The position numbers were made by a program, and so were the translations under genes. 58,409 bases of DNA from Pseudomonadota bacterium (GTDB lineage: Bacteria > Pseudomonadota > Alphaproteobacteria > Rickettsiales > SXRF01): assembly GCA_028873525.1 (NCBI GenBank), contig JAGWIM010000003.1, positions 1-58,409 on the forward strand. The letters are read 5' to 3'. Numbering within the stretch: the first letter of the stretch is position 1; each line of letters begins with the position of its first letter. The notes under the pieces were generated by a model that was not told the origin of the DNA, ran no database searches, and saw nothing but the letters and a program-made list of their open reading frames with translations. Below, one piece after another: positions 1,530 to 47,321 of this stretch.

Positions 1530-2102
1530 TTATCGTAATTTTGCGGTTTTATCAAGCCGGATGATATCGGCCAACTCCCGCCACACTTCCTCTTTCCAAA
1601 ATCTCCGCGCACGGCCCGACGTTGAGCACAGCACATAAAATTGCGTGTCGTTCAGCGTTTCATTTTGCAGCCCGTATTCCACCTTATGGCCGAAATAAAT
1701 TGAGGCGGCGTTTTTGCTGGTGAAGGCGACGAGCTTTGGTTTATAACGGCGGATTTTTTTCTTGAGTGCCTCGCGCTCGAGCGCTTCCGGCGGCAATTCA
1801 TCGTCGTTGCCGGAGCAGGTTTTGCATAAATCGGTCAGTCCGATGCCGAGCGACAGCAGCTTGGGATATTCCTGCGGATGAAAGAGTCGCGGCGTCAGGC
1901 GCACGCGGTGCAGCGCGTGCCAGAACTGGTTGCCGGGATTGGCGTAATAGGCTTTCTCGCGCGCCGAGATGCGGCTTGGCGCCGTGCCGCAGAATACAAG
2001 GCGCAATTCCGATTGCAGTAAATCAGGAACTATAGGTGCTCTGCGCCGGATGTCAGATGTCAGATGCCGGATGTTAGAAATGTGTTTTCTTTTATTTGAC
2101 AT
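1530..2102 (-). CDS. mug: mismatch-specific (G/U) DNA glycosylase; N-terminal ~22 aa are repeat-derived
   Basis: PDLL..LRLVFCGTAPS, YYANPGNQFW, GIGLTDL and LCSTSG motifs. Confidence 0.88.
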   Translation of the reverse strand: MSNKRKHISNIRHLTSDIRRRAPIVPDLLQSELRLVFCGTAPSRISAREKAYYANPGNQFWHALHRVRLTPRLFHPQEYPKLLSLGIGLTDLCKTCSGNDDELPPEALEREALKKKIRRYKPKLVAFTSKNAASIYFGHKVEYGLQNETLNDTQFYVLCSTSGRARRFWKEEVWRELADIIRLDKTAKLR

Positions 2103-2130
2103 CTAACATCTGTTATCTGGCATCCGGCGC
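2043..2130. repeat. heptamer-arm inverted repeat (CAGATGT type) spanning the lhgO stop and mug start
   Basis: gcgccggatgtcagatgtcagatgccggatgttag ... tgacatctaacatctgttatctggcatccggcgc. Confidence 0.85.
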
Positions 2131-3309
2131 GAAGCGGCTTACAATCCACTCGGCAAACGGAAAACTCGAAGTGAAGGCCGGTGAAACGGCATTGAGGACG
2201 TGGACGCTTTTTGCGTCGCCCTCGACGACAAAATCATGCAGCAGCTTCAGCGTGCGCTTGTCGAATAATTGTGCGCGAATGCCGGGGCGCATCCAGGTGG
2301 AAAAGCGTTTGGCATCGAGGTGTTTCACCATCAGTGCCGCCTGCTGCGCCATGTAATGCTTTGAGTATTTTTTCATTTCGCTCATCGCGAGTGAGCGAAA
2401 ATCGGCATTGAGTGCGAACATCATCGCCTCGCGGCCGAGGATTTCCACCATATCGCGCGGGGAAAACCCGTTCACGCCGCGATAATTCTCGCGCCAGAAG
2501 GCGGGAATTGCCGTCGGGCCGATTTTCACCGTGCCGTCCACCGTGACGCTGAAATGCACGCCGAGGAAAGGATTGCGCAAATTCGGCACGGGATAAATGC
2601 AGGGTTTGGCCGGTGTGTCCGCGCCTTCGTATTTGAGATAGACGCCCTTGAACGGGATGATGCCGTAATCGCGGCAAAAGCCGAAATCCCGCGCGATGCG
2701 GTCGGCATAAAGCCCGGCGCAATTGATAATCATCCCGGCCTCGAAGCGTTGCCCGCCGGCGACGATGCCATTGTCGCCGAAGCGGTATTCATAGGCCGTG
2801 CCGGTGAGGATGCTGACACCGTGCGTTTCCATTTCGCGTTTCAGCGTGTTGCATACTTCGATGGGATCGACGACGGCGGTGGTCGGCGAATAAATCGCCT
2901 GGCCGGCGGTTCTGGCGTTCGGCTCGATGGCGGCCAGATCTTTTTCGTCAATGAGCTTCAGCGTTACGCCGTTAGCCTGCCCGCGCCGGTAAAGCTCGCG
3001 CAGCGCTTCCAATTCCTTTTCATTTTTTGCCACCACAATCTTGCCGCAATCGTTGATGCGAAGTTTGTGTTCGGCCACATATGCCCGCAGCGCCTTATTG
3101 CCGTCGCGGCAGAATTTCGCTTTCAGCGAATCGGCGGCGTAGTAAAATCCGGCGTGCAGCACGCCGCTGTTGCGCCCGCTGGCGTGATGGGCCACGCCGC
3201 TTTCTTTTTCAATCAGGGTAATCGAGGCATCCTTATGGCGCGCCCGCAGGCTGCGCGCTACCGCCAGCCCCATGATGCCGCCGCCAATGATGAGGTAATC
3301 GGAATTCAT
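2113..3309 (-). CDS. lhgO: L-2-hydroxyglutarate oxidase family FAD oxidoreductase
   Basis: IIGGGIMG, HASGRNSGVLHAG, PFLGVHF, GIRAQ and NAVSPAFT motifs. Confidence 0.9.
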   Translation of the reverse strand: MNSDYLIIGGGIMGLAVARSLRARHKDASITLIEKESGVAHHASGRNSGVLHAGFYYAADSLKAKFCRDGNKALRAYVAEHKLRINDCGKIVVAKNEKELEALRELYRRGQANGVTLKLIDEKDLAAIEPNARTAGQAIYSPTTAVVDPIEVCNTLKREMETHGVSILTGTAYEYRFGDNGIVAGGQRFEAGMIINCAGLYADRIARDFGFCRDYGIIPFKGVYLKYEGADTPAKPCIYPVPNLRNPFLGVHFSVTVDGTVKIGPTAIPAFWRENYRGVNGFSPRDMVEILGREAMMFALNADFRSLAMSEMKKYSKHYMAQQAALMVKHLDAKRFSTWMRPGIRAQLFDKRTLKLLHDFVVEGDAKSVHVLNAVSPAFTSSFPFAEWIVSRFAPDAR

Positions 3310-3408
3310 CTCAAGACTCTGCTACGCTGGATTAAACCGTTTCGTTTTCTGCGCTTCTTGAAAACCTCGCCCTTAATCTCAGCGTAGCGAGTTTTAAAAT
3401 GAATTCTA
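3302..3408. repeat. MITE-like element with ~33-bp imperfect terminal inverted repeats; contains the lhgO ATG
   Basis: gaattcatctcaagactctgctacgctggattaa ... ttaatctcagcgtagcgagttttaaaatgaattc. Confidence 0.8.
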
Positions 3409-3414
3409 TGTATT

Positions 3415-3888
3415 TTAAACGTAGGCGATCGACAACACTTCGTAGCTTTTCTGGCCGCCGGGCGTACTGACCTCGATGCTGTCGCCTTTTTTCTTGCCGA
3501 TGAGCGCGCGCGCCAGCGGGGCGGTGATGGAGATTTTTTTGGCTTTGAGGTCGGCCTCGTATTCACCGACGATCTGGTAGCTCGTTTCATCGCCGCTTTC
3601 CTCGTCGGCGAGCTTTACCGTCGCGCCGAATTTGACGCTGTCGTTCGTAAGCGATTTGATGTCGATGATTTCGGCGCGCGAGACTTTGTCCTCCAGCTCA
3701 TTGATGCGGCCTTCGGTGAAGGACTGTTTTTCCTTGGCGGCGTGATACTCGGCGTTTTCCGACAGGTCGCCGTGCGCCCGCGCCTCGGCGATGGCGGCGA
3801 TAATGGCCGGCCGCTCTACCGATTTCAGGTTTTTGAGTTCCGCCTCCATGCGGGCGTAACCCGCCGCGGTGATGGGAAGTTTGTCCAT
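3415..3888 (-). CDS. greA: transcription elongation factor GreA
   Basis: [18 protein letters not shown]; start at MDKLPIT gives 157 aa. Confidence 0.97.
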
Positions 3889-3947
3889 AGATTTTACACA
3901 ATAAAAAAAATGCACCCGCGCTTCTGGTGCAGGCATAATATGCAGGC

Positions 3948-3976
3948 AAGCTAGAAAGATATAGCCGATTCGTCAA
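3948..3976 (-). promoter_or_regulatory. putative sigma70 promoter for greA
   Basis: TTGACG-17 nt-TAGCTT on the minus strand. Confidence 0.5.
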
Positions 3977-3998
3977 GGCTTAGAGAGCAAGGTATTGA

Positions 3999-4202
3999 AA
4001 AGATTGTTTAATACAGATAGCCCATTTCAGGCGCCTTCCTGTGATAAAGCATTTGGCTGATTGTGGAGTAGATATTAGTAATAGGCTCTTGCATCAGGTA
4101 ATACATTCGCAACCTGAAACCGCTGAGACGTTGATTCGATGGGGTGCAAGTGTAAAAGGTAGGCGTACTCGGGGCAATAACATAGATGGTCATACGACGT
4201 AG
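3999..4202 (+). pseudogene. ankyrin-repeat-like gene fragment
   Basis: Stop-to-stop frame without ATG: LIQIAHFRRLPVIKHLADCGVDIS / RLLHQVIHSQPETAETLIRWGASVK...IDGHT. Confidence 0.45.
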
Positions 4203-4213
4203 CCAGCATCATC

Positions 4214-7200
4214 CTATAAATCCTTAAACGCTTGCTCATCTTCGTCGGATAGCCATTCCCCGGCCAAGGTTTGCTCCACCGCAGTTAAGTAGTCGCGTTC
4301 TTCAGATTGCTCTGCGAAATAATCCTGTATCGGCTTTACGTCAAGCCCGTCGCTGCTGCTTACGGCTTCGATGGCCTGGGTGCAGGCGCGGGCGCCGGCC
4401 ACCGTGGTGTAATAGGAGATTTTGTTAAGGAGCGCCGTGCGGCGGATGGAGAAGGAATCGGCGATGGATTCGCCGCCCTCAGTGGTGTTGATAACCAGCG
4501 CGATTTTATTGTCTTTCAGCATGTCCACAATGTGCGGCCGCCCCTCGCGCACTTTGTTGACCACCCCGACATCGAGTCCCTGGGTTTGCAGGTAGGCCGC
4601 CGTGCCGCGCGTGGCGACGACCGAAAAGCCCATTGCTAATAATTTTTTGACAGCGGGCGCAACCTGCGGCTTGTCCGATTCCTTGACAGAAACAAATACG
4701 CATCCGCTTTGCGGGATCGTGCCGCCTGCCGAAAGTTGCGACTTGGCAAAAGCGCGCGGGAAATCGCGGTCGATGCCCATTGCCTCGCCGGTCGATTTCA
4801 TCTCCGGCCCGAGGATGACGTCCACCCCCGGAAACCGCGCGAAGGGAAAGACGGATTCCTTCACACTTACGTGTGAAGAGGTTGACAGTTGACAGTTGTC
4901 AGTTGTCAGATCTTTTCCTGTTAGCTGACGACTGATAACTGATAACCGTTCTCCGGCCATCACCCTTGCCGCGATCTTGGCCACCGGAACGCCGGTCGCT
5001 TTAGCCACGAAAGGCACGGTGCGGCTGGCACGCGGATTCACTTCGATGAGGTAAACCTCATTATCCTTGATGGCGAATTGCACATTCATCAGCCCGATGA
5101 CTTTAAGCGCCCGCGCCAGCGCTTTGGTCTGCCGTTTTACTTCGGCAATGATGTCTTCACTCAGCGAGTAAGGCGGCAAGCTGCAGGCCGAATCGCCGGA
5201 ATGGATGCCCGCTTCCTCGATATGCTGCATGATGCCGGCAACGAACACATCCTTGCCGTCTGAGAGGCAGTCGACGTCCAGCTCGGTGGCGTCCTGCAGA
5301 TAGGAGTCGATCAATATCGGCCCGTCGCCGAACATTTTGGCGAGTTCCTCGACATAGATTTCCAGCGACGGCTTGTCGTACATGATTTTCATGGCACGGC
5401 CGCCCAGTACGTACGATGGCCGCACCAGCAGCGGGAAACCAATGTTGTCTGCCTGTTTCACCACTTCCTGCGCAGTGGTGCCTATGGCGCTTTTCGGTTG
5501 CTTCAGTTTCAGCTTGTCGACCAGTTTGCGGAAGCGGTCGCGATCCTCGGCGAGGTCGATGGAATCGGGCGAGGTGCCGATGATGATGTCCTTGCCGAAC
5601 TCTTTTTCCAATGGCCGCGCCAGCTTCAGCGGCGTCTGCCCGCCGAACTGCACGATGACGCCTTTGAGCTTTCCGTTTTTCTTCTCGGTGCGGATGATTT
5701 CAAACACATCCTCCGCCGTCAGCGGCTCGAAATAAAGCCGGTCGGAAGTGTCATAATCGGTAGAGACGGTTTCCGGGTTGCAGTTAACCATGATGGTTTC
5801 GTAGCCCGCCTCTTTGAGCGCATAGGCCGCGTGCACGCAGCAATAATCGAACTCGATGCCCTGGCCGATGCGGTTCGGCCCGCCGCCTAAGATGATGATT
5901 TTTTCCTTATCCGTCGGCTCGGATTCGCATTCGCCATGCTCATAGGTCGAATACATATACGGCGTCTGCGAATCGAATTCCGCCGCGCAAGTATCGACGC
6001 GCTTGTAGACGGGGTGGATGTCCAGCTTGTCGCGCAGCTTGGCAATATCTCCGGTCTTGCAGCCGCATAACCCGGCAATGCGGGCATCAGAAAATCCCAT
6101 GCGCTTCCAACGATATAATTCGTCATTCCCGCGAAGGCGGGGAGCCGGTCGTGAATGGCTTCCCGCCTTCGCGGGAATGACGGCTTTAATTTCTTTTTCC
6201 GTCGCCACAATCTCTGCAATCTGCCTCACGAACCACGGATCATATTTCGTGATGGCGCAGATTTCTTCTACGCCAAGTCCCATGCGCAATGCCTGCGCGG
6301 CGACCAGCAACCGGTCGGGCGTCGGGCGTCCGAGTTTCGAGCGGGCGTCATCCATGTCTTTCAGCGGCACTTCGTCGAGTCCCGTCAGCCCGGTTTCCAG
6401 CGAGCGCAGCGCCTTCTGCAACGACTCCTGGAAATTGCGTCCCATCGCCATCGCTTCGCCCACCGATTTCATGGAGGTGGTGAGAATCGGCTCGGCGCCG
6501 GGGAATTTCTCGAAGGTGAAGCGCGGGATTTTGGTGACGATGTAATCAATGGTCGGCTCGAAGCTGGCGGGCGTGGCGCCGCCGGTGATGTCATTTTTAA
6601 TCTCATCGAGCGTGTAGCCGACCGCCAGCTTGGCTGCCACCTTGGCGATGGGAAATCCCGTGGCTTTACTGGCCAGCGCCGACGAGCGAGACACGCGCGG
6701 ATTCATCTCGATGACGACCATCCTGCCGTCCTTGGGGTTTACGGCGAACTGCACGTTGCTGCCGCCGGTATCGACGCCGATTTCGCGCAAGACCGCGAAC
6801 GATGCGTCGCGCATAATCTGGTATTCCTTGTCGGTCAGCGTGAGCGCGGGCGCGACGGTAATCGAATCGCCGGTATGCACGCCCATCGGGTCGATGTTTT
6901 CAATCGAGCAGACAATGATGCAGTTGTCGGCTTTGTCGCGCACCACTTCCATCTCGTATTCCTTCCAGCCCAGCACCGACTCGTCGATCAACACCTCGCC
7001 GATGGGCGATGCGTCCAGCCCGCTGACTACAATCTGCTCGAATTCCTCGCGGTTATAGGCGATGCCGCCGCCGGCGCCGCCCATGGTGAAGCTCGGGCGG
7101 ATGATGGCGGGAAGCCCCACTCTTTCTAATGCCCTGCGTGCTTCGTCCATGGACTTGACCACGGCGTTTTTGGGAACGCAGAGGCCGATTTTGTTCATCG

Positions 7201-7603
7201 CCCGGTTGAATAATTCGCGGTCTTCGGCCTTGTTGATCGATTCCAGCCGCGCGCCGATGAGTTCGACATTATATTTTCTCAGCACGCCGGATTCGGCCAG
7301 CGCCTTGGCGCAGTTCAGCGCCGTTTGCCCGCCCATGGTGGGAAGCAGTGCGTCGGGTTTTTCCCTGGCGATGATTTTTTCCACCATTTCCGGCGTGATT
7401 GGCTCGATGTAGGTGGCGTCGGCCAGCTCCGGGTCGGTCATGATGGTGGCCGGGTTGGAATTGACCAGCACGACGCGGTACCCCTCGGCCTTCAGGGTTT
7501 TGACCGCCTGCGTACCCGAATAATCGAACTCGCAGGCCTGACCGATGACAATCGGCCCGGCGCCGATGACGAGGATGGAGTTGATGTCAGTTCTTTTTGG
7601 CAT
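4214..7603 (-). CDS. carB: carbamoyl-phosphate synthase large subunit with two in-frame repeat insertions and an extra C-terminal tail
   Basis: [30 protein letters not shown] start, duplicated ATP-grasp domains, MGS domain. Confidence 0.98.
4881..4950. repeat. heptamer-arm inverted repeat in frame in carB ([23 protein letters not shown])
   Basis: gttgaca gttgaca gttgtca gttgtca ... gctgacg actgata actgata accg. Confidence 0.88.
6121..6182. repeat. CGTC-tagged REP-like doublet in frame in carB ([21 protein letters not shown])
   Basis: Perfect 21-bp arms cgtcattcccgcgaaggcggg / cccgccttcgcgggaatgacg; same family at 25972, 30674 and 53855. Confidence 0.95.
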
Positions 7604-8078
7604 GAGCGTCGAAAACAGTAATGGGAGGATTATCTTTCGTCTGCGCCTGCGCCAGCACCTGCTCCAGCACGAGCGTGTCTCCCGATAGCTGGTAACTATA
7701 GGCCAATCGCGGCCCATTCCCTGCATCAATCGAGGTATAGTTGAGCGTCTTCGACACGGTATCAAAATGATAACTCGTCGCCTCGAAGGCGACGCCGCTG
7801 CTCAGGGAAATTTTGCCGGTGGCGGGGTTGTACTCCTGGATGAACAGCGGGTCATACTGCGGCGCGCCGCCGGTGATTTCCACCAGGTCAATGCTATAAA
7901 CATACTGGTAGGCTGCTTTCGATCCGCTGAATATCAGGAAGCGGTTGCCGCCCAGCGCCACCGTCTCCTGCCGCGTGTCGGCCAGCATCGCCTGTTTTTG
8001 CGCCGCGAGATCATGCGCTGATGTGGGCAGGGAGGCGAACGCAACCGCAATGACAATGAATGCCGGTATATTACGCAT
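7587..8078 (-). CDS. hypothetical exported protein between carA and carB
   Basis: Signal-peptide-like N-terminus; overlaps the carA stop and carB start. Confidence 0.75.
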
Positions 8079-9273: not shown

Positions 9274-9318
9274 GTGCTGGTCGCGCGGCTCCCGCTTAAA
9301 GTCAAACAAATTGGCGGG

Positions 9319-9347
9319 ACAATAGGGGGGCAGGGCGGGGGTGTCAA
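9319..9347 (-). promoter_or_regulatory. putative sigma70 promoter for carA
   Basis: TTGACA-17 nt-TATTGT on the minus strand. Confidence 0.65.
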
Positions 9348-9443
9348 GGGTGAAATCCCCGCACAACTCCACACCTGTTGCGGGGGTATTGCGGTGTCCG
9401 GTGTAAACACGCGCCAGGCAATGAACGGTGTAACCCGCTCAAA

Positions 9444-10685: not shown

Positions 10686-10783
10686 CGCCGTGCCTTTCGT
10701 GGTTGAAAAAAGCGGTATAAGGCCTATTGTAAAGGCAATGTGGTGAACAAAGCATTAAAACGGCAGAGATACATAAAATATCC

Positions 10784-16067: not shown

Positions 16068-16074
16068 GATTCAA

Positions 16075-16127
16075 GGTGACCCGGATCGCGGGTTGCGTTT
16101 ATTTACGAGCCACGCGACTCTCGACTC
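16075..16127. repeat. degenerate heptamer-arm inverted repeat between arnB and arnC
   Basis: ggatcgc gggttgc gtttattt ac gagccac gcgactc tcgactc. Confidence 0.5.
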
Positions 16128-16130
16128 TAA

Positions 16131-17270
16131 TCACGCCTTTAAGACTTTTTCCATCGCTTTTATCACCCTGTCCTGTTCGGCTTCCGTCATGGTGGGAAAG
16201 AGCGGCAGGCTCGCAATGCTGTTTCCGGCGGCCAAAGCATTTGGAAAATCTTCGGGTTTCCAGTCGTAGCGTTCCTTGTACCAGCTAAACATATGCGCCG
16301 CCTGGTAATGCAGGCCGACACCGATATTTTCCGCCTTCATGGCAGTAATAAAGCCGTCGCGGTCATTAAGCCGTGGCGTAAACAGGTGCCAGGCGTGCGT
16401 ATGCGCGTAGGTGGGGGCCTGCGGCAGGATAAGTTCCGGCCAGTTTTCAAGCGCTTCATAATAACGTTTCACCAGCGCTGCACGTTTTTTGATGAACCCA
16501 TCCAGTTCCGGCAACTGGTGCAGGCCGAGCGCCGCCTGGATGTCCATCATGTTGTATTTGAACCCCGGCAACACGACGTCGTATTGCTGGCTGCCTCCTT
16601 TGGCGAAGCGGTTGAAGGCGTTGCGGTCGATGCCGTGGAACCTTAAGCGCTCGATAGCGGAAATTACTTCTTTATCATCGGTGATGACGGCGCCGCCTTC
16701 GCCGGTCGTCATGTTTTTGTTGGGATGAAAACTCATGACGGCGATGTCGCCGAACGAGCCGAGTTTTTTGCCTTTATATTCTGCGCCGATGGCGTGCGCG
16801 CAGTCTTCCACCACGCGCAGCGAATGTTTTTTTGCCAGCGCATAAATCATATCGAGGTCGCAGGGTAATCCGGCGAAATGCACCGGCATGAGGACGCGGG
16901 TGCGCGGCGTGATGGCCGCTTCGAGCCGCGATACATCCATATTGAGCGTTGCCGGATCAATATCCACCAGCACCGGCGTTGCGCCCGCCAGCGCGATGAC
17001 GTTGAGCGTGGCGGCAAACGTCAGCGGCGTGGTGATGACTTCATCGCCCGTTTCCAATGTCAGCGCCAAGAGCGCCACGTGCAGCCCGGCGGTGGCGGAG
17101 GATAATGCCAAGGCTCTCCTGCCGCCGTGACAGGCCGATAGCATCTCCTCGAACTTCTGCACGCGCGGGCCGGTGGTGATCCAGCCGGAGCGCAGGGTTG
17201 CCACGACTTCTTCAATCGCCGCTTCGCTTAAAGCAGGTCTGGCGAAGGGGAGAAATTCTACATCGGCCAT
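16131..17270 (-). CDS. arnB: UDP-4-amino-4-deoxy-L-arabinose aminotransferase (DegT/ArnB)
   Basis: FLPFARP, SGWITTGP, EDCAHA, SFHPNKNMTTGEGG and GFKYNM motifs. Confidence 0.88.
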   Translation of the reverse strand: MADVEFLPFARPALSEAAIEEVVATLRSGWITTGPRVQKFEEMLSACHGGRRALALSSATAGLHVALLALTLETGDEVITTPLTFAATLNVIALAGATPVLVDIDPATLNMDVSRLEAAITPRTRVLMPVHFAGLPCDLDMIYALAKKHSLRVVEDCAHAIGAEYKGKKLGSFGDIAVMSFHPNKNMTTGEGGAVITDDKEVISAIERLRFHGIDRNAFNRFAKGGSQQYDVVLPGFKYNMMDIQAALGLHQLPELDGFIKKRAALVKRYYEALENWPELILPQAPTYAHTHAWHLFTPRLNDRDGFITAMKAENIGVGLHYQAAHMFSWYKERYDWKPEDFPNALAAGNSIASLPLFPTMTEAEQDRVIKAMEKVLKA

Positions 17271-20164: not shown

Positions 20165-20241
20165 AGCAAAGAATTGATGCGTTGACAAACCGGCGCGGAT
20201 TCACAATAAGGGGACAACATGACATTAAGGGGCGGAAACAT

Positions 20242-20313
20242 CAGGGGATGACCCGTAACCGGATGGCCGGGTTTTTCTGGTCATCAGGTTATCCGGTGAC
20301 GGGTCATCCGCTG
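20242..20313. repeat. long inverted repeat built of 7-8-mers in the ABC operon leader
   Basis: ggatgacccgtaaccggat ... atccggtgacgggtcatcc (18/19 complementary) around a T-rich loop. Confidence 0.8.
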
Positions 20314-36641: not shown

Positions 36642-36646
36642 CACTC

Positions 36647-37375: not shown

Positions 37376-38209
37376 TTAAACTTTTTCCCCCGCCACCATA
37401 TAATTTACGCCCAAATCCTTTGCATCTACTCGCCATTGGCCGTCCAGCGGATTAAAAACCATCCCGGTCATTTCGGTGATTTCGATATTATTGCGCCGCA
37501 ACGCATTCACCAACTCGTGCGGGCGCAGGAATTTCTTCCAGTCATGTGTGCCGCGCGGCAGCCAGCGCAACACATATTCGGCGCCGACGATGGCCAGCGC
37601 AAAAGATTTAGCCGTGCGGTTGAGCGTCGAATAAAATATCAGGCCGCCGGGCTTGACCAGCGCCGCGCTCGCAGCCACGAACGCTTCCACATCGGCGACG
37701 TGCTCAATGATCTCGAGGGCGAGAACGATATCGAAAGGAAGTGGAAAGTGGGAGGTGGAAGGTGAATGGTGCGCCGGTTTTTTTTCACCGTCCACTTTCC
37801 AGCGTCCACCGTCCACCATTTCCTCCGCGGTGGTGCATATATAATCAACCTCCAGCCCGGCCTGTCTGGCATGAAGTTTGGCGGCGGCGATGTTTTCCGC
37901 CGAAGCATCAATGCCGGTAACTTCCGCGCCCAGCCGCGCCATCGGTTCGCAGATGAGGCCGCCGCCGCAACCGATGTCCAGAAGGCGGATGCCTTCCAGA
38001 ATTGGCAGTCGGCAATTATCGGTTGTCAATTTTTTTACTGATAACCGTGAACCATCGACTGGTAACTGATTCAATATATATTGAATCCGCACCGGGTTCA
38101 TCCGGTGCAGCGGCGCAAACGCGCCGTGCTCGTCCCACCACTGGTCGGCCAGCCGCGAGAATTTATCGACTTCCACGGCGTCAACGGTTGTATTGTGCGG
38201 TCGTTTCAT
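37376..38209 (-). CDS. ubiG: ubiquinone biosynthesis O-methyltransferase with two in-frame heptamer insertions
   Basis: WWD, LHRMNPVR, LDIGCGGG, LEIIEHV and GTHDW motifs. Confidence 0.96.
   Translation of the reverse strand: MKRPHNTTVDAVEVDKFSRLADQWWDEHGAFAPLHRMNPVRIQYILNQLPVDGSRLSVKKLTTDNCRLPILEGIRLLDIGCGGGLICEPMARLGAEVTGIDASAENIAAAKLHARQAGLEVDYICTTAEEMVDGGRWKVDGEKKPAHHSPSTSHFPLPFDIVLALEIIEHVADVEAFVAASAALVKPGGLIFYSTLNRTAKSFALAIVGAEYVLRWLPRGTHDWKKFLRPHELVNALRRNNIEITEMTGMVFNPLDGQWRVDAKDLGVNYMVAGEKV
37735..37820. repeat. heptamer-arm inverted repeat in frame in ubiG (MVDGGRWKVDGEKKPAHHSPSTSHFPLP)
   Basis: tggaaag tgggagg tggaagg tgaatgg ... T8 ... caccgtc cactttc cagcgtc caccgtc cacc. Confidence 0.88.
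38001..38069. repeat. heptamer-arm inverted repeat in frame in ubiG (QLPVDGSRLSVKKLTTDNCRLP)
   Basis: attggca gtcggca attatcg gttgtca aT7 actgata accgtga accatcg actggta; same subtype as carB 4881. Confidence 0.88.
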
Positions 38210-38245
38210 TTACCTTATCCCTAAGGGAGGGAGGTATTGTAGCGC

Positions 38246-39268: not shown

Positions 39269-39713
39269 CCGGTTTACCATCCGCTTCGCCACAGAAGAAG
39301 ATGCGGGAACGCTTACTAAAATACATCAGGAGTGTTTCATAACTTACTGGAATAAAGAAGCATTTAGTAATTTTTTTTCGGTACAAAATACTTTTGCGTT
39401 TCTGGCGGAGGCGCCTGATCCTGATGGCATGATAGTCTTTCGCGTGTATCCGGATGAGGCTGAAGTCATCACGTTGGCAGTGCGGCCTGCGCGGCGCAGG
39501 CAGGGCATCGGCCGGGCGCTGCTGACAAAAGCCATGAACGGGGCGAAAAACTTCGGTGCGCGGGCGATGTTCCTTGATGTCGAGGATGGTAACAATGCGG
39601 CGCTTACGCTATATGAATCTTATGGATTTACGCAGATAAACCGCCGCAGGCAATATTACCGCCACAAGGACGGAAGCTACACGGATGCGCTTGTATTACG
39701 GGAGAAATTATAA
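39252..39713 (+). CDS. rimI: RimI-like GNAT acetyltransferase (start uncertain)
   Basis: EAEVITLAVRP..RRQGIGRALL, FLDV...N..AL.LY and RRQYY motifs. Confidence 0.85.
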   Translation: MSSVNSRFTIRFATEEDAGTLTKIHQECFITYWNKEAFSNFFSVQNTFAFLAEAPDPDGMIVFRVYPDEAEVITLAVRPARRRQGIGRALLTKAMNGAKNFGARAMFLDVEDGNNAALTLYESYGFTQINRRRQYYRHKDGSYTDALVLREKL

Positions 39714-39784
39714 TAGTGCTTAATGCCCGGTGCTTGGTGTGCAGAAAAAACTTTCAAACCAAAGCATCAGGTACCAGGTACTAA
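39714..39784. repeat. heptamer-arm inverted repeat filling the rimI-lysC spacer
   Basis: tagtgct taatgcc cggtgct tggtgtg ... aaccaaa gcatcag gtaccag gtactaa. Confidence 0.65.
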
Positions 39785-39786
39785 AA

Positions 39787-41016
39787 ATGGCGTTGATTGT
39801 ACAGAAATTCGGCGGCACGTCGGTAGGCGATATCGAGCGCATAAAAAACGTCGCCTGCAAAGTCAAAAAAGAGCGTGACGCGGGCAACCGCGTGGCGGTC
39901 GTTGTCTCGGCGATGGCGGGCGTCACCAACCAACTCGTGGGTTATGTCGAGGCACTGTCGCCGCTCAATTCCGACGAAGCCTGGCGCGAATACGACCAGG
40001 TGGTGTCGTCCGGTGAGCAGGTGACCAGCGGTCTGCTGGCGCTGGCGCTGCATGAGATGGGTGTTCCCTCACGGTCGTTCGCCGGTGGGCAGATTCCGCT
40101 GAAGACCAACCATGTGCACGGCAAGGCGCGCATCGCTGGCATCGATGCGACGGAAATCAAAAAAGCGCTGGATGGCGGCATGGCAGCGGTCGTCGCCGGG
40201 TTCCAGGGCACGACGCCGGATGGTCGCATCGCGACGCTGGGGCGCGGCGGCTCCGATACCTCGGCGGTGGCGCTGGCGGCGGCGCTGAAGGCCGACCGCT
40301 GCGATATTTACACCGACGTGGATGGGGTTTATACCACTGATCCGCGCCTGGTCGAGGGTGCGCGCAAGCTTGATAAAATCACCTGCGAGGAAATGCTGGA
40401 GCTGGCGTCGCTCGGGGCGAAAGTATTGCAGACGCGCTCGGTTGAGATGGCGATGAATCATGGCGTGGTGGTGCAGGTGCGCTCCAGCTTCGCCGACACG
40501 CCCGGAACGTATCTGGTCAATGAGGAGGACATCGTGGAACAAAAGAAAATCACCGGCATCGCCTACAGCCGCGACGAGGCGCGTGTCACCTTAACCGGCG
40601 TCCCGGACAAGCCGGGCGTGGCAGCGGCGATTTTCGGTCCGCTGGCTGACGCCAACATCAACGTCGACATGATCGTCCAGAACGTCGATGAGATCGGCCG
40701 CGTGACCGATATGACGTTTACCGTGAATAAGACTGACCTGGAACGCGCCGTCGCCGCACTCCAAAAAGCCCGTCCGGTGCTGCAATACAAGGAGATGAAC
40801 GCCGATAAAAACGTTGCCAAAATTTCGGTGGTGGGTGTAGGGATGCGCTCGCACGCGGGTGTTGCGCTCGATATGTTCAAAACTCTCGCCGAAAAAAACA
40901 TCAATATCCTCGTCATCTCGACGTCGGAAATAAAAATCAGCGTGCTGATCGCCGAGGAATACACCGAGCTGGCGGTAAGAGCATTACATGCGGCGTTTGA
41001 ATTGGAGAAGGCGTAG
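39787..41016 (+). CDS. lysC: aspartate kinase
   Basis: VQKFGGTSV, TLGRGGSDTSA, YTDVDG motifs; two ACT domains. Confidence 0.97.
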   Translation: MALIVQKFGGTSVGDIERIKNVACKVKKERDAGNRVAVVVSAMAGVTNQLVGYVEALSPLNSDEAWREYDQVVSSGEQVTSGLLALALHEMGVPSRSFAGGQIPLKTNHVHGKARIAGIDATEIKKALDGGMAAVVAGFQGTTPDGRIATLGRGGSDTSAVALAAALKADRCDIYTDVDGVYTTDPRLVEGARKLDKITCEEMLELASLGAKVLQTRSVEMAMNHGVVVQVRSSFADTPGTYLVNEEDIVEQKKITGIAYSRDEARVTLTGVPDKPGVAAAIFGPLADANINVDMIVQNVDEIGRVTDMTFTVNKTDLERAVAALQKARPVLQYKEMNADKNVAKISVVGVGMRSHAGVALDMFKTLAEKNINILVISTSEIKISVLIAEEYTELAVRALHAAFELEKA

Positions 41017-41127
41017 TCTCGTGGCACGCGAAGCGTGAGCACGGGATCCGCACAAAATCTATGACATCATTACAGGACAAAATTACAGGAGAATCCTGCG
41101 CTGGCGCTCCGCGCTCCGCAGGATTGA
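41013..41127. repeat. REP-like doublet whose spacer holds the ATG of the next gene
   Basis: tctcgtggcacgc-gaa-gcgtgagcacggga and aatcctgcgctggcgctccgcgctccgcaggatt. Confidence 0.65.
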
Positions 41128-42149
41128 AAAGCCTCTGGTCTCGCGGCATCGATTTCTTCGGCTGCGAATACGCCATCATGGGCGGGGCGATGTCGTGGGT
41201 GTCGGAGCGCAACTTGGTTGCAGCGCTGTCGAACGCCGGGGCGTTCGGCGTCATTGCCTGCAGCGCCATGACGCCGGAATTGCTCGATAAGGAAATTACG
41301 GAGACGAAGAAGCTGCTTACTTCTCCCTCCCACAAGGGAGGAGGGGATAAGAGGTCTTTCGGCGTCAACCTCATCATCATGCACCCGAAAATGGACGAGC
41401 TGATCGAAGTGTGCAAAAAACACTATGTGTCGCATGTGGTGCTGGCCGGTGGCATTCCGAAGGATAGCTGGATCAAGGCCATCAAAGCATACGGCGCGAA
41501 GGTCATCTGCTTTGCGCCCTCGGCTATTATCGCGCGCAAACTCATCCGCCTCGGCGCCGATGCCATCGTCATCGAGGGAATGGAGGCGGGTGGCCATATC
41601 GGGCCGGTGTCCACCTCGGTGCTGGCGCAGGAGATTCTACCGGTCATCCGCGAAGTGCCGGTGTTTGTGGCCGGCGGCATCGGGCGCGGCGAGGCGATGG
41701 CGGCGTACCTGGAAATGGGCGCGTCCGGCGTGCAGCTTGGCACGCGGTTTGTCTGCGCCACCGAATCCATCGCCCATGCGAAATTCAAAGAGGCCTTCAT
41801 CCGCGCGGCCGCGCGCGACGCGCAGCCCTCGGTGCAGCTTGACCCGGATTTCCCGGTGATTCCGGTGCGCGCCGTCGTCAACAAGGCGACCGATGCGTTT
41901 GCGCGGATGCAGTATGAAGTCATCGCCGAATTCCGCGGCGGCAAGATCGACAAGAAAGAAGCGCAGCTTAAAATCGAGCATTTCTGGGCGGGAGCGCTCC
42001 GTCGCGCCGTCATTGACGGCGATGTCGAGCATGGCTCGGTCATGGCCGGACAGAGCGTTGGTATGGTGATAAAAATTCAGCCGCTTAAGGAAATCCTGGA
42101 GGAGCTGATCGGGCAGGCGGAAGCCTATCTCGACGCCCACCGATCATGA
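41061..42149 (+). CDS. nitronate monooxygenase/FabK-like FMN enzyme
   Basis: GGAMSWVSE, FGVNL, EGMEAGGHIG, VAGGI and LGTRF motifs. Confidence 0.9.
   Translation: MTSLQDKITGESCAGAPRSAGLKSLWSRGIDFFGCEYAIMGGAMSWVSERNLVAALSNAGAFGVIACSAMTPELLDKEITETKKLLTSPSHKGGGDKRSFGVNLIIMHPKMDELIEVCKKHYVSHVVLAGGIPKDSWIKAIKAYGAKVICFAPSAIIARKLIRLGADAIVIEGMEAGGHIGPVSTSVLAQEILPVIREVPVFVAGGIGRGEAMAAYLEMGASGVQLGTRFVCATESIAHAKFKEAFIRAAARDAQPSVQLDPDFPVIPVRAVVNKATDAFARMQYEVIAEFRGGKIDKKEAQLKIEHFWAGALRRAVIDGDVEHGSVMAGQSVGMVIKIQPLKEILEELIGQAEAYLDAHRS
41322..41347. repeat. minimal PSP-family hairpin in frame (SPSHKGGGD)
   Basis: tctccctccc-acaa-gggaggagggga. Confidence 0.75.
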
Positions 42150-42736
42150 GCACGGATTCCTACAGTGACATCGGCAACCTGCTTAGCCACGCCCGCCTTG
42201 AATTTGGATTGAGCGTCGAGGAGGCCGCGCGCCGGCTGCACATCCGCACGCGCTATGTCGAAGCGCTGGAGGAGGGACGGCTGGCCGATCTGCCCGGCGT
42301 GATTTACACCAAGGGATATCTTCAGGCTTATGCCACCTTCCTCGGGTTGGACAAGGAGGAAATCCTGCGCCGGTTCGAGCAGGTGGAAAAATCGTTGGAA
42401 CATCGCGGCCTCTATTTTCCGGGCATCATGAGCCGCGAGAAAGCGCCAAGCCCGCTTATTATCTGGGGTGGGGCGTCGGCGGCGCTGGTGCTTTATTTTG
42501 CCTGGCTGCTGGTCATGCGGCCACCGCTGTCCTCGATTTCCGTGTTTGAGGCGTTCCCGGCGCCGCCGCAAGAGAGGGTGCCGGTGTCGGTTGGGACGAT
42601 GGCGGATGTGGCTTGCCTGCGCCCGCAGAAGGTATATTATCCGCCCTGTACCACGCTGCGGCACGGCTCCAGCCTGTTTTCGCTGTCGGGCCGACTGGTC
42701 ATGGCGATGCCGCCGACAACCACGCAGTTACCGTGA
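42146..42736 (+). CDS. RodZ-like HTH membrane protein
   Basis: [32 protein letters not shown] followed by a TM helix; upstream of ispG. Confidence 0.85.
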
Positions 42737-42738
42737 CG

Positions 42739-43980
42739 ATGCCTGTGTCCCCACAACGCCGCCATTCCTTGAAAACATATATCGGCACCAAAGCCGTGGG
42801 CGGCGACGCGCCTGTCATGGTGCAGGCGATGACCAATACTGACACCGCTGACGTGTCAGCCACCGTGGTGCAGGTGCGCGCGCTCGCCGAGGCGGGATCG
42901 GAAGTGGTGCGGATTACGGTTAACAATGAGGCGGCGGCAAAAGCGGTTCCCGTGATTTATGAAAAGTTATTGGCTGGCGGCACTGCCGTCCCGCTCGTCG
43001 GCGATTTTCATTACAACGGCCATACGTTGCTGAAAAGTTATCCTGAGATGGCGCAGGCCTTGGCCAAATACCGCGTCAATCCCGGCAATGTCGGCTTTGC
43101 GGATAAGCACGATGCGCAGTTTTCCATGATGATTGAGGCGGCGTTACGATATGGCAAGCCGGTGCGGATAGGTGCCAATTGGGGTAGCCTGGATCAGCAG
43201 ATGCTGGCGAAGGTCATGGATGAGAATGCTGCATCGCGGCAGCCCAGGGACGCAGGCGCGGTGGCGCGCGAGGCGCTGGTGCGTTCGGCGCTGGAGAGCG
43301 CCAGACACGCTGAAGACATTGGCATGGCAGCGAACGATATTATTCTCTCCTGCAAGGTCAGCCGTGTGCCGGATTTAATCACCGTGTACCGCGACCTTGC
43401 GTCGCGGTGCAATTTCGCGCTGCATCTGGGCCTCACCGAAGCAGGCATGGGAAGCCGAGGCATTGTGGCGTCAAGCGCGGCGCTGGCCGTGCTGCTCATG
43501 GAAGGCATCGGCGACACCATCCGCATTTCGTTGACGCCGGAACCGAATGGCGATAGGGCACAGGAAGTGCGCGTCGCGCAGGAATTATTGCAGAGCTTGG
43601 GTTTGCGGAGCTTCACGCCGCAGGTCACGGCCTGCCCGGGCTGCGGCCGCACCACCAGCACTACCTTTCAGGAACTGGCCGATAAGATTCAAACATTCTT
43701 GCGGGCGCGGATGCCGCGCTGGAAGGAACACTATGCGGGCGTGGAACGCATGAACGTGGCGGTGATGGGTTGCATCGTCAACGGCCCGGGCGAGAGCAAG
43801 CACGCCGACATCGGCATTTCGCTACCCGGCGCTGGCGAATCCCCCGCCGCGCCCGTCTTCATCGACGGCAAAAAAGCGCTCACCCTTCGCGGCGAGCGCA
43901 TCGCCGAGGAGTTTCAGCAATTGGTGGAGAATTACGTGAAGGAAAAATACGGGCGAGAAGGAAAAAAATATGTCGCCTAA
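42739..43980 (+). CDS. ispG: HMB-PP synthase
   Basis: [25 protein letters not shown] and [11 protein letters not shown] motifs. Confidence 0.97.
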
Positions 43981-45322
43981 ACTCCAGCCTGTCCGTGGTA
44001 CGCACGATATTCTGCCGGAGGAATTCGAGAAATTTCATGCCGTAGTGACGCGCGCGCGCGAACTCGCCACGCTTTATGGTTTTCGCGAAATGGCCACGCC
44101 GATTTTCGAGCAGACGGAAGTATTCTCGCGCTCGATGGGTGAAACCTCCGATGTGGTGAGCAAGGAAATGTTCACCTTTCCAACCAAGGGCGAGGAAAGC
44201 GTTACGCTCAGGCCGGAATTCACGGCGGGAATTGTTCGCGCGTTTTTATCAAACGGGATGCAGCAGCATCTGCCGCTCAAACTCTTTTCCACCGGCCCGC
44301 TGTTCCGCTACGAGCGCCCGCAGAAAGGCCGCCAGCGCCAATTTCATCAGGTGAATTTTGAGTATTTTGGATATGATAGTCCTGCCGCTGATGTTGAAAC
44401 AATCTGCCTTGCCGGACATTTATTATATTCTTTATCCGGAAAGACTGGTTGCACTTTGCTCATTAACACGCTTGGTGATAAAGAAAGCAGAGAAAAATAT
44501 CGTAACGCGCTCGTAGATTATCTTACGCCATATGCTAAGGACATGTCGGAAGACAGCCAACGCCGCCTTGTCAGCAATCCGCTGCGTATTCTCGATTCCA
44601 AGAGCGAGCAGGATAAAAAAATCATTCACGATGCGCCAAAGATCACCGATTATCTAAGCAGCAGTGCAAAAACTCGTTTTGATTTTGTGTGTGAGACATT
44701 AAGCAAAATGCCGGCTATGCAACCTATGAAGGTAAGCCCGTCATTGGTGCGAGGATTGGATTATTATACCGATACCATATTTGAGTTTGTTGCCGAGACA
44801 GGGGAATTAGGTACGCAGAATACGGTACTGGCAGGCGGCAGATACGATGGATTAGTCGAGCAACTGGGTGGAAATTCTGTGCCTGCCATTGGTTTCGCCG
44901 CAGGCATTGAGCGGTTGCTCCTCCTTACTAAAACTCTTGAGTGGGATAATGTACGGCAACTTAAAATCATGATTCTGCCGTTTGAAGCAGTATTGCCGGA
45001 AGCAACGCTTATGATTGCCGCAATTCTGCGCAATGAACTCTACGCGCATCAAAGAAAAACGAATCTGAAATGGAAATTTACTGTAGAGTCTTTATGGCAA
45101 GGCAATCTTAAGAAGCGCATGGAAAGGGCAGCGCAGCGAAATGCGGATTATGTGATTATTTTAGGGCCAGAAGAAGTTTCTCGCGATGCATGCGTTGTCA
45201 AAAATATGAAAACAGGCAAGCAGGAAGAAGTAAGCCTTGCTAACCTTAAAGATGAGAACAAGCTCATCGAGTTATTTAATATAACACAGGATCCCGGCTT
45301 TCGCCGGAATGACGAGAAATAA
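43970..45322 (+). CDS. hisS: histidine--tRNA ligase, AT-rich 3' two-thirds, repeat-derived C-terminus
   Basis: [30 protein letters not shown] and GGRYDGL motifs. Confidence 0.97.
45289..45314. repeat. CGTC-family arm encoding the HisS C-terminus (DPGFRRND)
   Basis: ggatcccggc-tttc-gccggaatgacg. Confidence 0.8.
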
Positions 45323-46393
45323 ATGTCCTTCTCTGACCGGCTCGATACGCTGGTGCGGCGGCATCAGGAATTAAACGATATGCTCTCCGCAGGGCAGGTC
45401 AGCGGTTCTGACTTTGCCAAATATTCCAGGGAATATGCCGATCTCACGCCGTTGGTCGAGACCATCCAGGCCTACCAGAAAGCCAATAGTTCGCTGCGGG
45501 ATGTGAAAGCGATGATCGCTGACCCGGCCTGCGACGCCGAGATGAAAAAAATGGCGGAAGAAGAAATGCATGAGTTGCAGCACACGCTGCCGGCGCTGAC
45601 AAAAGCGGTGCAACTGGCGCTGCTGCCTAAGGACGCGGCGGATGAGAAGAACGCGATTCTCGAAGTGCGCGCCGGTACCGGCGGCGACGAGGCGGCACTG
45701 TTTGCCGCCGATTTATTCCGCATGTACCAGCGCTATGCCGGGAAGCAGGGCTGGAAATTTGAAGTGATGTCTCTCTCCGAATCGGGCATCGGCGGCTATA
45801 AGGATGCGACGGCGGAAATCACCGGCCGCGGCGTCTTCGCCAAGATGAAATACGAGGCGGGCGTGCATCGCGTGCAGCGTGTGCCGAAAACCGAAACGCA
45901 AGGCCGCATCCATACCTCGGCGGCCACCGTCGCCGTGTTGCCGGAGGCCGAGGAGGTGGACATCAAAATCGAAGACAAGGATTTGCGCATCGACGTGTTT
46001 CGTTCGAGCGGCCCCGGCGGGCAGAGCGTCAATACCACCGATTCGGCGGTGCGCATCGTCCATCTGCCGACCGGGCTTATCGTGCAGCAGCAGGATGAAA
46101 AATCGCAGCACAAGAACAAGGCGAAGGCGCTGAAAGTGCTGCGCGCGCGGCTTTATGAAGCCGAGCGCGAAAAGCTGGCCAACGAACGCGCCAGCGCCCG
46201 CAAGGAAATGGTCGGTTCGGGAGACAGAAGCGAGCGCATCCGCACCTATAATTTTCCGCAGAGCCGCGTTACCGACCACCGTATTAACCTGACTACCTAT
46301 ACTATCGATCAGGTGATGAACGGCGAGCTTTCCGAATTCACCGACGCGCTCATCGCTGACGACCAGGCGAAAATGCTGGCGGAATTGAGCTAA
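45323..46393 (+). CDS. prfA: peptide chain release factor 1
   Basis: RVQRVPKTE (PxT) and [13 protein letters not shown] motifs. Confidence 0.98.
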
Positions 46394-46394
46394 A

Positions 46395-47321
46395 ATGGCA
46401 TGTAATTCCCCTTTGCAATCGGCGCCGGTTTCTGCTAGAGAGGCTGTGCGCGACGCGGTGATGGCCCTGCAGCGGGCCGGTGTCGAAACCGCGTCGCTGG
46501 ATGCACGGGTGCTGTTGGAATACGTGCTTGGCGCAAGCCGCGAGGAGTTACTCGCCGCGATGGATGTGCCGATCGATGACAGCCAGAATGCCGCGTACCG
46601 CGAATTGGTGAAAAAACGTGCACGGCGCTGTCCGGTGTCGCAGCTTACCGGTCGGCGGGAGTTCTGGGGGCTGACGTTTAAGGTGACGGCGGATACGCTC
46701 GATCCGCGCCCTGACAGCGAAACGCTGGTCGAGGCGGTGCTCGAAGCCGTGGAGGGTGGAACGTGGAACGTGAAACGAGATAATGTTTTGCCACGCGCCA
46801 CGCGCCATATGCCGCAAACCATTCTTGATTTGGGAACCGGAACGGGTTGCCTGCTGATCGCATTGTTGAGGGAATGTAAAAATGCAGAAGGAATTGGCGT
46901 GGATTTGAGTGATGCAGCAATCGCCGTAGCGCGCGAAAATGCCGCTGCCCTGGGGGTCGGTAATCGTGCCCGCTTCATCGCCGGTAACTGGAACGCGCCG
47001 CTTGACGGGAGATTCGACAGTATACTTTCCAATCCGCCCTATATTCCCACCGGGGAGATTGCCACGCTGGCGCCGGAAGTGGCGCAGCATGAGCCGAAAC
47101 TGGCGCTCGACGGCGGCGCCGATGGGCTGGACGCCTACCGTGCCATCCTGCCGCGACTTTCAGGATTGCTGGCGGAACGTGGCCGCGCATTTCTCGAAAT
47201 CGGCAAGGGGCAGGAGGAAGATGTAATTACGCTGGCGCGGCAGAGTGGGCTTGCCGCCCTTGGCGTGAAACAGGATTTAGGCGGTGTGACGCGGTGCGTC
47301 ATGCTGGCTATGCAAAACTAA
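46395..47321 (+). CDS. prmC: release factor glutamine methyltransferase with an in-frame heptamer insertion
   Basis: PRPDSE, LDLGTGTGC and SNPPY motifs. Confidence 0.96.
   Translation: MACNSPLQSAPVSAREAVRDAVMALQRAGVETASLDARVLLEYVLGASREELLAAMDVPIDDSQNAAYRELVKKRARRCPVSQLTGRREFWGLTFKVTADTLDPRPDSETLVEAVLEAVEGGTWNVKRDNVLPRATRHMPQTILDLGTGTGCLLIALLRECKNAEGIGVDLSDAAIAVARENAAALGVGNRARFIAGNWNAPLDGRFDSILSNPPYIPTGEIATLAPEVAQHEPKLALDGGADGLDAYRAILPRLSGLLAERGRAFLEIGKGQEEDVITLARQSGLAALGVKQDLGGVTRCVMLAMQN
46748..46820. repeat. heptamer-arm inverted repeat in frame in prmC (VEGGTWNVKRDNVLPRATRHMPQ)
   Basis: cgtggag ggtggaa cgtggaa cgtgaaa ... gccacgc gccacgc gccatat gccgcaa. Confidence 0.85.

Follow-up and report, generated by a model that had tools for sequence, protein, structure and literature searches.

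The window analysed here is the whole stretch of 58,409 nucleotides (nt) of contig JAGWIM010000003.1 from a Rickettsiales alphaproteobacterium (lineage SXRF01, assembly GCA_028873525.1), which is contig C101 of a genome, named G000 below, that spans 2.0 Mb in 156 contigs with 57% G+C and is 95.8% complete. Within and between its genes, which include carB, ubiG, prmC and an aspartate kinase gene, lie short hairpins whose arms are built of imperfect tandem units of seven bases. An earlier reading of the letters alone (the original prediction) had named eight such sites, ascribed one design to them and taken them for mobile or scar elements, possibly the gene-less form of cassettes with a four-helix-bundle gene of the type known from intervening sequences (IVSs) of ribosomal RNA (rRNA). 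Our analysis showed that this heptamer architecture recurs throughout the genome and that, in longer forms found in many bacterial phyla, heptamer arms bracket a gene for a four-helix-bundle protein.

Heptamer hairpins in the window and in the genome

The eight sites were read by eye, folded as RNA against shuffled sequences, and scanned for autocorrelation of the arms by period. At each, a series of imperfect 7-base units leads into a short A/T-rich loop and then into complementary units, and none of the eight loops holds an open reading frame (ORF). A single long hairpin that beats the shuffles is formed at seven sites (z from −2.6 to −9.9 on the plus strand), and at seven sites, too, both arms score best at period 7 (autocorrelation 0.48–0.95). 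Tandem Repeats Finder (TRF) placed period-7 arrays at 2049, 4881, 4931, 37739, 37786, 46748 and 46790, and Rfam gave no match at the gathering score anywhere in the window.

Four of the elements lie in frame inside genes, as had been predicted; the identities of these genes were confirmed by NCBIfam profiles (carB, ubiG, matched in two stretches, and prmC), and all four elements appear as insertions relative to orthologues. The carB element (4881–4952; gene on the minus strand) has the unit CAGTTGA/T, folds with a z of −6.9, shows period-7 autocorrelation of 0.95/0.79 in its two arms together with a TRF period of 7, and adds a net 12 residues to the protein. The minus-strand ubiG gene carries two elements: one at site B (37733–37824; unit GGTGGAA/C, z −5.1, TRF period 7), whose loop opens with an A-run on the sense strand, and one at site A (37999–38078), with a degenerate CAGTTAC-like unit, a z of −4.6 and autocorrelation of 0.50/0.48. 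The element in the plus-strand prmC gene (46746–46817) is composed of GTGGAAC units, adds a net 15 residues, and combines a z of −2.6 with autocorrelation of 0.86/0.82 and a TRF period of 7.

The remaining four sites are intergenic. The element at 2040–2133, between two minus-strand ORFs, has four CAGATGT units in its 5′ arm, three units in its 3′ arm and a 32-nt A/T-rich loop; it folds at −52.3 kcal/mol (z −9.9), shows autocorrelation of 0.74/0.65 and a TRF period of 7, and scores 24.3 with the genome-wide detector described below. A GGTGCTT-like element (39712–39786; z −4.0, autocorrelation 0.55/0.55) takes up the spacer just before the start of the aspartate kinase gene: the NCBIfam profile of this enzyme begins at residue 20 of ORF 39730–41016, which places the true start at 39787, right after the element. 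The site at 16073–16137, also between two minus-strand ORFs, is a doubtful or degenerate member, with a weak period 7 (0.56/0.61) and a fold that is not significant (z −1.5 on the plus and −0.5 on the minus strand; 19 of 200 shuffles do as well), and it was missed by the detector. Finally, the hairpin at 20240–20312, upstream of a plus-strand ORF, is strong (−44.9 kcal/mol, z −6.9) and has no clear period 7 (0.39/0.33, against 0.41/0.52 at period 8); it may belong to another subfamily. The common design proposed for these sites is therefore borne out for most of them, the exceptions being the fold at 16073 and the period at 20240.

Across the whole genome, the architecture far exceeds what chance would give and is specific to period 7. 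G000 contains 159 period-7 tracts, compared with 6–16 in five order-2 Markov shuffles, and 28 inverted pairs of such tracts within 100 nt, compared with 0, 1, 0, 0 and 0 in the same shuffles; such pairs are thus commoner than in shuffled sequence, contrary to the outcome on which the original prediction was to be given up. The numbers of inverted pairs at periods 5, 6, 8, 9, 10 and 11 are 0, 2, 0, 0, 0 and 0. A looser detector, which accepts 10 of 14 matches at lag 7 and a stem score of at least 12, found 84 hairpins in G000 and 0, 0 and 1 in three shuffled genomes. This count is a lower bound, since the detector recovers only four of the eight named window sites. Units of eight bases replace heptamers in some elements that keep the overall design, namely at ubiG site A of two relatives (L006 in G003 and L013 in G004) and at loci L061, L048, L097, L110, L112 and L251–L253 (for example GTGGAGAT).

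Heptamer arms bracket a four-helix-bundle gene

The original prediction asked whether some inverted pairs enclose an ORF in place of the loop, and they do. When wider spacing was allowed in the search, a pair of inverted tracts 434 nt apart on contig C80 was found to enclose an ORF. The Pfam family PF05635 matches three places in G000 (131.6, 116.5 and 44.6 bits), and the genes at two of them, on C80 and C122, are bracketed by inverted heptamer arrays; against TIGR02436 (“four helix bundle protein”; cut-off 24), their proteins reach 121 and 112 bits. Judged by eye, the C80 cassette lies upstream of an ORF that resembles biotin carboxylase and the C122 cassette upstream of one that resembles LeuC. 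The third, divergent gene (C8:2809–3117; 44.6 bits) has a downstream tract only and no 5′ arm, and it falls in an interval that holds a typical armed cassette in the relative G019. The nearest solved structure to the cassette protein is XCC0516 (2GSC, five chains in the entry; E 5e-22).

The family is present in 18 of 31 genomes, comprising G000 and 30 relatives of the same order. Of 30 listed loci, 29 were scanned (27 from relatives and two from G000), the last being cut by a contig end. The best stem between upstream and downstream flanks scored 17.8–38.4 in these 29 loci, compared with a mean of 12.8 and a maximum of 21.4 in a shuffled control (n = 150), and 24 of the loci lie above that maximum. 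Element length is 422–539 nt, with one outlier of 637 nt.

The same arrangement extends well beyond the order. With an alignment of six proteins as query, 80 loci were fetched from named genome records of Acidobacteriota, Bacteroidota, Planctomycetota, Chloroflexota, Clostridia, several proteobacterial classes, Acidimicrobiia and others, and 79 were scanned against a control that moved the “gene” to another position inside these loci (n = 124). The 95th percentile of this control (19.9) is exceeded at 61 of the 79 loci and its maximum (21.4) at 53; where the arms are periodic, 46 loci score best at period 7 and two at period 8. On viral contigs, where 29 close hits (E up to 8e-24) were taken from 40 loci returned and one had too short a flank, 20 of 28 loci exceed the maximum of the displaced control, 18 of them with period 7. 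The four-helix-bundle gene is thus bracketed by heptamer arms in G000, in its order, in many phyla and on viral contigs. A cassette in a Planctomycetota record (L078, around 1300–2100) has long arms, with about 180 nt and some 25 GGTGGAC units per side and a stem score of 162.

Full cassettes share a common layout: a 5′ arm of three to five or more tandem G-rich heptamers (38% G, 17% C) is followed by a short purine-rich spacer, a TIGR02436/PF05635 gene of about 120–140 codons, and a 3′ arm that is often overlapped by the stop codon of the ORF. The units vary around a loose consensus, YCAG-N-K-G, with the G-rich strand always first; AG occurs in 96 of 130 units, compared with 63.8 expected from shuffled units. 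Searches of 20 cassette loci gave no match to large-subunit (LSU) rRNA, and the sole Rfam match in them was an unrelated Acido-Lenti-1 more than 1 kb away. In a tree of 27 cassette proteins, which left out L048 and L050 (one of them a 290-residue fusion), some pairs from the same site cluster and others do not, with 11 of 24 inner branches unresolved. Protein clades and arm units travel together in this tree, for which common descent accounts equally well.

The short form keeps the arms around an A/T-rich loop of 4–97 nt. Seventeen gene-less hairpins of G000 constitute a single sequence family with the unit CAGCGGC, placed at unrelated loci, and they agree beyond their repeats in an outer AGTTG...CAACT and an inner end, either CAGTAA or CAGTGAAGGAAG. 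The same termini are found in two gene-carrying cassettes of relatives, L034 (G017) and L036 (G015), so that the CAGCGGC type has terminal inverted repeats in common with a longer element, as in miniature inverted-repeat transposable elements (MITEs). The units of the two full G000 cassettes, GGTACTC and GTTGCTG, likewise recur in gene-less copies (C80:5583, C150:5514, C150:3532 and C131:8451). By sequence comparison, then, the hairpins fall into subfamilies with conserved termini that are scattered over unrelated loci, and the gene-less forms would descend by internal deletion, as their shared ends suggest. The expectation that a BLAST-based repeat finder would fail to group the hairpins is correct between different families and too sweeping within them, where copies such as the 17 of CAGCGGC type can be grouped. 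Two CAGCGGC-type hairpins flank, on either side, an rpsK-like gene (identified by eye) in a ribosomal-protein operon (C100:11580–12230).

Relatives were sampled for short forms in eight genomes at about 200 kb each (90 kb for G008). Among those with the gene, six gene-less hairpins were found in G002, seven in G004, two in G017 and none in G015; the samples of G012, G008, G007 and G030, in which the gene is absent or gives a weak match, contain none. This small sample of related genomes hints that short forms are tied to genomes that have the gene.

Filled, empty and absent sites and their placement among genes

The original prediction called for orthologous loci to be compared for filled, empty and absent states, and all three were found. 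The carB insert occurs in G000 only and is absent in G002, of the same genus, and in G004, G007 and G019; its hairpin is 69 nt long and the net gain is only 36 nt. At prmC, G000 and G003, again of the same genus, carry inserts at the same position, both with a net gain of 15 residues and composed of unrelated units (GTGGAAC and GGTCATG, respectively), and the insert is absent in G002, G004, G007 and G019. The prmC match of G002 (L154; C12:44095–44961) contains one TAA stop.

In an alignment of ubiG from 30 genomes, site A is occupied in G000 and G002 and, with 8-base units, in G003 and G004, and holds half an element in G014. Site B is occupied in G000, G002, G003 and G019, the relatives having other units than G000, and holds half an element in G007. 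Both sites carry short loops in all the other genomes, so that occupied sites are the minority, and an A-run directly follows the 5′ arm on the sense strand at every occupied site. In one metagenome contig, placed at 85% likeness and possibly from a related organism, 27 other letters stand in place of 37994–38077, which is exactly the site-A element.

Full cassettes of relatives map to junctions at which the genes of G000 abut or overlap. The junction upstream of carB in the window (7606–7611), where the upstream ORF and carB abut and the mapped flanks leave a gap of 5 nt, holds a full four-helix-bundle cassette in G002. Three further junctions behave alike: C90:12187–12193 is filled in G019, G025 and G003, C91:49515–49521 in G002, and C8:3666–3693 in G004. 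At the C90 junction the stop and start codons of the G000 genes overlap, and the start codon of the downstream gene falls within the 3′ arm, or at its end, in G003 and G019. Judged from these comparisons at carB, prmC, ubiG and the four junctions, filled, empty and absent states all exist at orthologous sites. A different kind of occupant was seen at C57:8138–8560, where G000 has an ORF of about 130 codons without heptamer arms and of no obvious family by eye, in the place at which G017, G015, G006 and G025 carry a four-helix-bundle cassette.

The placement of the 84 hairpins among genes was derived from the gene calls of our own codon-bias ORF picker (1712 genes, 84% coding), so that the classes in-gene and intergenic are approximate; calls were checked by homology for carB, ubiG, prmC and five tight junctions only. 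On this basis, 34 hairpins fall within called ORFs, and 30 of these are 60 nt or more away from the start of the ORF; 31 lie between co-directional genes, 11 between divergent and two between convergent genes, and six at contig ends. In 15 of the co-directional cases the hairpin fills the spacer almost wholly. At four of the five tight junctions the neighbours are complete and different (VirB11/VirD4, an unnamed ORF/PBP2, a histidine kinase/NtrX and SdhA/ThrS) and therefore are not the halves of a frame-broken gene; the fifth pair has no family match. In the first of these, the type IV secretion genes for VirB11 and VirD4 (C5:1016–3900) are parted by the heptamer hairpin C5:1997–2072.

Full cassettes are mostly sense-oriented between co-directional genes, often a few bases from the next start codon, and are co-oriented with both neighbours at 19 of 24 evaluable loci of relatives and at 38 of 59 diverse loci. 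By analogy with rRNA IVSs, this co-orientation would fit expression by read-through. Short forms within genes leave the reading frame open, and the loops of the short forms differ with their placement: on the sense strand, 22 of 30 in-gene loops are A-rich and five T-rich, compared with 14 and 13 among intergenic loops. We read this bias as a filter on the encoded peptide, in which loops of Lys, Glu and Asn are favoured over loops of Phe and Leu. One ORF (C74:59029–59387) contains, some 330 nt from each other, two in-frame direct copies of the same half element, in which an A-run follows the unit GCCGGGT.

Origin of the hairpins and comparison with known systems

We consider that the window hairpins belong, as members without an ORF, to a family of palindromic cassettes of the IVS type, a reading to which we assign a probability of roughly two in three. 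The evidence for it includes the TIGR02436/PF05635 genes enclosed by arms of the same design, the CAGCGGC termini common to short and gene-carrying forms, and the filled, empty and absent states of orthologous sites, besides the excess over shuffled genomes, the sampled occurrence of short forms only alongside the gene, the co-directional setting, the A-rich loops within genes and the precedent of the Coxiella IVS. The original view of the hairpins as the gene-less form of four-helix-bundle cassettes is supported. Its description of them as mobile or scar elements is likewise supported overall, with “scar” the more conjectural half: a blastx search of the 18 loops of at least 40 nt against 29 four-helix-bundle proteins detected no gene remnant (best E 0.07, mostly translation of the arms).

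That negative result is one of several observations that weigh against this reading. No target-site duplication was seen at the 17 CAGCGGC copies or at six filled/absent junctions, and no transposase or reverse transcriptase was found tied to the elements. About 17 short CAGCGGC copies exist in G000, and the assembly holds no full CAGCGGC cassette; conversely, G015 has seven full cassettes and none of the short forms in the 200 kb sampled. The in-gene class of hairpins rests on rough ORF calls. Furthermore, a single site may carry unrelated arm units with equal net length in related genomes, at prmC in G000 and G003 and also at the ubiG, C90 and C57 sites, which simple copy-and-paste does not predict; such cases could reflect re-insertion at hot spots or a single old insert whose two arms changed rapidly and in concert. 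Finally, wobble pairs give no sign of selection to preserve a stem in the transcript, because the sense strand shows no preference for G-U. When full cassettes are read in the direction of their ORF, the sense strand shows 78 G-U and 71 C-A; the corresponding figures for gene-less copies are 90 and 102 between genes and 78 and 108 within genes. The strand bias of G-T pairs, which the original prediction had proposed to examine, thus has no tie to transcription.

All eight window hairpins are 2–10 kcal/mol more stable on the plus strand, whichever way the gene runs, and GC skew is positive across the window (1–58409; +0.02 to +0.07). Genome-wide, the excess of G-T over A-C shows a weak trend with local GC skew (Spearman 0.20, p 0.064), and pooled wobbles number 225 on the G-rich strand and 183 on the other. 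Arm complementarity seems to belong to the level of DNA and to decay through ordinary mutation with a slight strand skew. Identity between arms in register is 0.758, compared with 0.685 for permuted units, where the register is the best one and the arms include the unique termini; one unit out of register it is 0.731.

If the hairpins are members of such a cassette family, the short forms would be internal-deletion, MITE-like derivatives of full cassettes, or would at least share a common copying mechanism with them, and would spread at the DNA level. Inside genes, only copies that are in frame, free of stop codons and hydrophilic in the loop would survive, to be translated as 12–25 extra surface residues. 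The arms may pair in transcripts and loop the insert out, which in rRNA IVSs produces a substrate for RNase III and here may rejoin the flanking stop and start codons; looping out by the arms is our best reading of why the inserts are tolerated. As to movement, our best guess is a role for the nucleic-acid-binding four-helix-bundle protein, which would recognise the periodicity of the arms and bring in replication or repair by the host.

We extend this tentatively to a broader proposal, although we think the odds lean against it in its full form. Heptamer-armed cassettes may be uncharacterised selfish mobile elements that cross phyla, of which ORF-bearing rRNA IVSs would be the first members to be noticed. 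The four-helix-bundle protein, a relative of the Avd protein of diversity-generating retroelements (DGRs), would be the element's own mobility or maintenance factor and would read arms with a 7-base period (YCAG-N-K-G) rather than a fixed sequence. Looped out of DNA or RNA by its arms, the insert could be tolerated at operon junctions, in rRNA helices and even in coding frames.

Among the other explanations, the likeliest is growth in place: heptamers would multiply by slippage and become palindromes by fold-back synthesis or conversion from arm to arm, the hairpins would be immobile, and four-helix-bundle genes would later settle in their loops or at such sites. It would explain why unrelated units stand at one site with equal net length, as in prmC and likewise at ubiG sites A and B, and why no target-site duplication is seen. 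The 36-nt net gain of the 69-nt carB hairpin points in the same direction, as it implies that ancestral sequence was replaced or reused, as do arms that are almost as complementary one unit off as in register and the array expansion evident in the long arms of L078. The 17 copies at unrelated loci, however, have common non-repeat termini that recur in full cassettes of other genomes, and growth in place does not predict the loose unit consensus across phyla, with its excess of AG. In addition, slippage by single units would shift the frame of essential genes, and cassettes separate genes that have overlapping stop and start codons where the cassette is missing. On balance, we regard growth in place as unlikely.

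The hairpins could also be regulatory RNA structures of the host, maintained by selection on the transcript as RNase III sites, stabilisers of messenger RNA or devices of translational coupling, with only a secondary link to the four-helix-bundle gene. Most of them do lie in transcribed places, since co-directional genes flank 31 of the 50 intergenic copies, which often fill the spacer to the next start codon; two flank rpsK, and the stem of an rRNA IVS is a proven RNase III substrate (PMC4990558). Selection on the transcript would, however, be expected to favour G-U on the transcribed strand, contrary to the counts given above, and the better folding of the plus strand at all eight window sites regardless of gene direction fits compositional skew better. 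Orthologous junctions in close relatives work without hairpins, about a third of the hairpins are within coding sequence, and no Rfam family matches. A host regulatory role as the origin of the hairpins seems to us improbable. Intrinsic terminators or chance palindromes in G+C-rich DNA, to which the G+C-rich stems and the T-runs in some loops or flanks might point, are refuted by the shuffled genomes with their 0–1 hairpins, by the specificity for period 7 and by gene placement, with two of 50 intergenic copies between convergent genes and 34 of 84 hairpins inside ORF calls.

The cassette reading finds its closest known parallel in the IVSs of 23S rRNA. The IVS of Coxiella is a 428-nt insert in helix 45 with a 28-bp stem and an S23p ORF; its 5′ part has, according to strain, two or three GACAGAT heptamers ahead of the ORF, and it is cut by RNase III within the stem (PMC4990558). 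The same source states that IVSs put an extended stem-loop in place of the tetraloop at a helix tip, that ORF-less IVSs exist in other bacteria, and that the question of where rRNA intervening sequences come from has stood open since the 1990s (PMC4990558). IVSs with an S23p ORF, from Coxiella, Leptospira and Haemophilus, resemble the full cassettes described here in size (428–444 nt compared with about 420–500 nt), in the long stem formed by their terminal inverted repeats, and in the protein family of their ORF, as represented by the full forms on C80 and C122. The Coxiella unit also fits the CAGATG-type unit of the window element at 2040. They differ in location, lying at the tip of helix 9, 25 or 45 of the rRNA, whereas the present elements occupy carB, ubiG, prmC and spacers, and in the number of ORF-less copies, which here amounts to dozens per genome. 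No match to LSU rRNA was found in the assemblies of G000, G017 and G019, and the unmasked parts of the partial, partly masked 23S loci of G002, G004 and G015 contain no period-7 or period-8 tracts.

REPIN/RAYT systems and MITEs are similar in having short, scattered palindromic copies, sequence subfamilies and a longer, gene-bearing form with the same inverted ends. They are different in that the gene enclosed here is not a known transposase (neither HUH/Y1 nor DDE), that no target-site duplication is seen, and that the ends vary greatly between subfamilies while keeping their 7-base period. A transposase of the RAYT type was considered as a partner and rejected: the only match to PF01797 (Y1, IS200/RAYT-type) in G000 is a fragment split over two contig ends (C2:1–150 and C142:10326–10472), which is not flanked by heptamer arrays.

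The palindromic elements of Rickettsia likewise occur in frame in conserved protein genes and are apparently translated. The elements in carB, prmC and the two ubiG sites resemble them in this respect, a likeness of behaviour only; the Rickettsia families, of 100–150 nt, are not known to have tandem heptamer arms or a linked four-helix-bundle gene. The Avd accessory protein of DGRs belongs to the same superfamily, PF05635, and a DGR review cites this family. The present elements differ from DGRs in their inverted tandem heptamer arms; PF00078, the reverse transcriptase family, was not found in G000, and no pair of template and variable repeats was seen.

Cyanobacterial short tandemly repeated repetitive (STRR) sequences and the TAACTGA repeats of Beggiatoaceae are also abundant tandem heptamers, mostly intergenic and near start codons; they have been described as direct repeats, whereas the arms here are inverted. 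In the text on Beggiatoaceae, most sets are intergenic, the largest class ends 1 nt upstream of a start codon, and only one inverted set is reported, the others being direct (PMC4679880). That text contains none of the terms “four helix”, “S23” and “intervening sequence”.

Our literature search, whose coverage left most subscription journals and supplements outside, met the link between heptamers and a four-helix-bundle gene only in the rRNA of Coxiella (PMC4990558). An earlier description of heptamer-armed cassettes outside rRNA may exist elsewhere. The IVS design itself is known; what appears to be new is its occurrence outside rRNA, between protein genes and in frame inside them.

These observations bear on several wider questions. 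TIGR02436/PF05635 proteins are among the commonest small bacterial proteins of unknown function, and their routine bracketing by inverted heptamer arrays offers a concrete model both for the function of the protein and for the origin of rRNA IVSs. Lineage-specific inserts of 12–25 residues in housekeeping enzymes would find an explanation, and annotators may take such inserts and genes labelled “four helix bundle protein” as marks of one repeat system. The arms would also provide a second example, beside the attC sites of integrons, of geometry that is conserved more than sequence.

Finally, G000 contains an unrelated second repeat family, which consists of hairpins of the GTCATTCC / CCCGC-N-GCGGG type at C74:42079–42246, at C139:4872–5039 and in the loop of C23:8842–8972. 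Genome-wide, 162 matches to CCCGC-N3-8-GCGGG were counted, together with 53 matches of the 8-mer and 52 of its complement.

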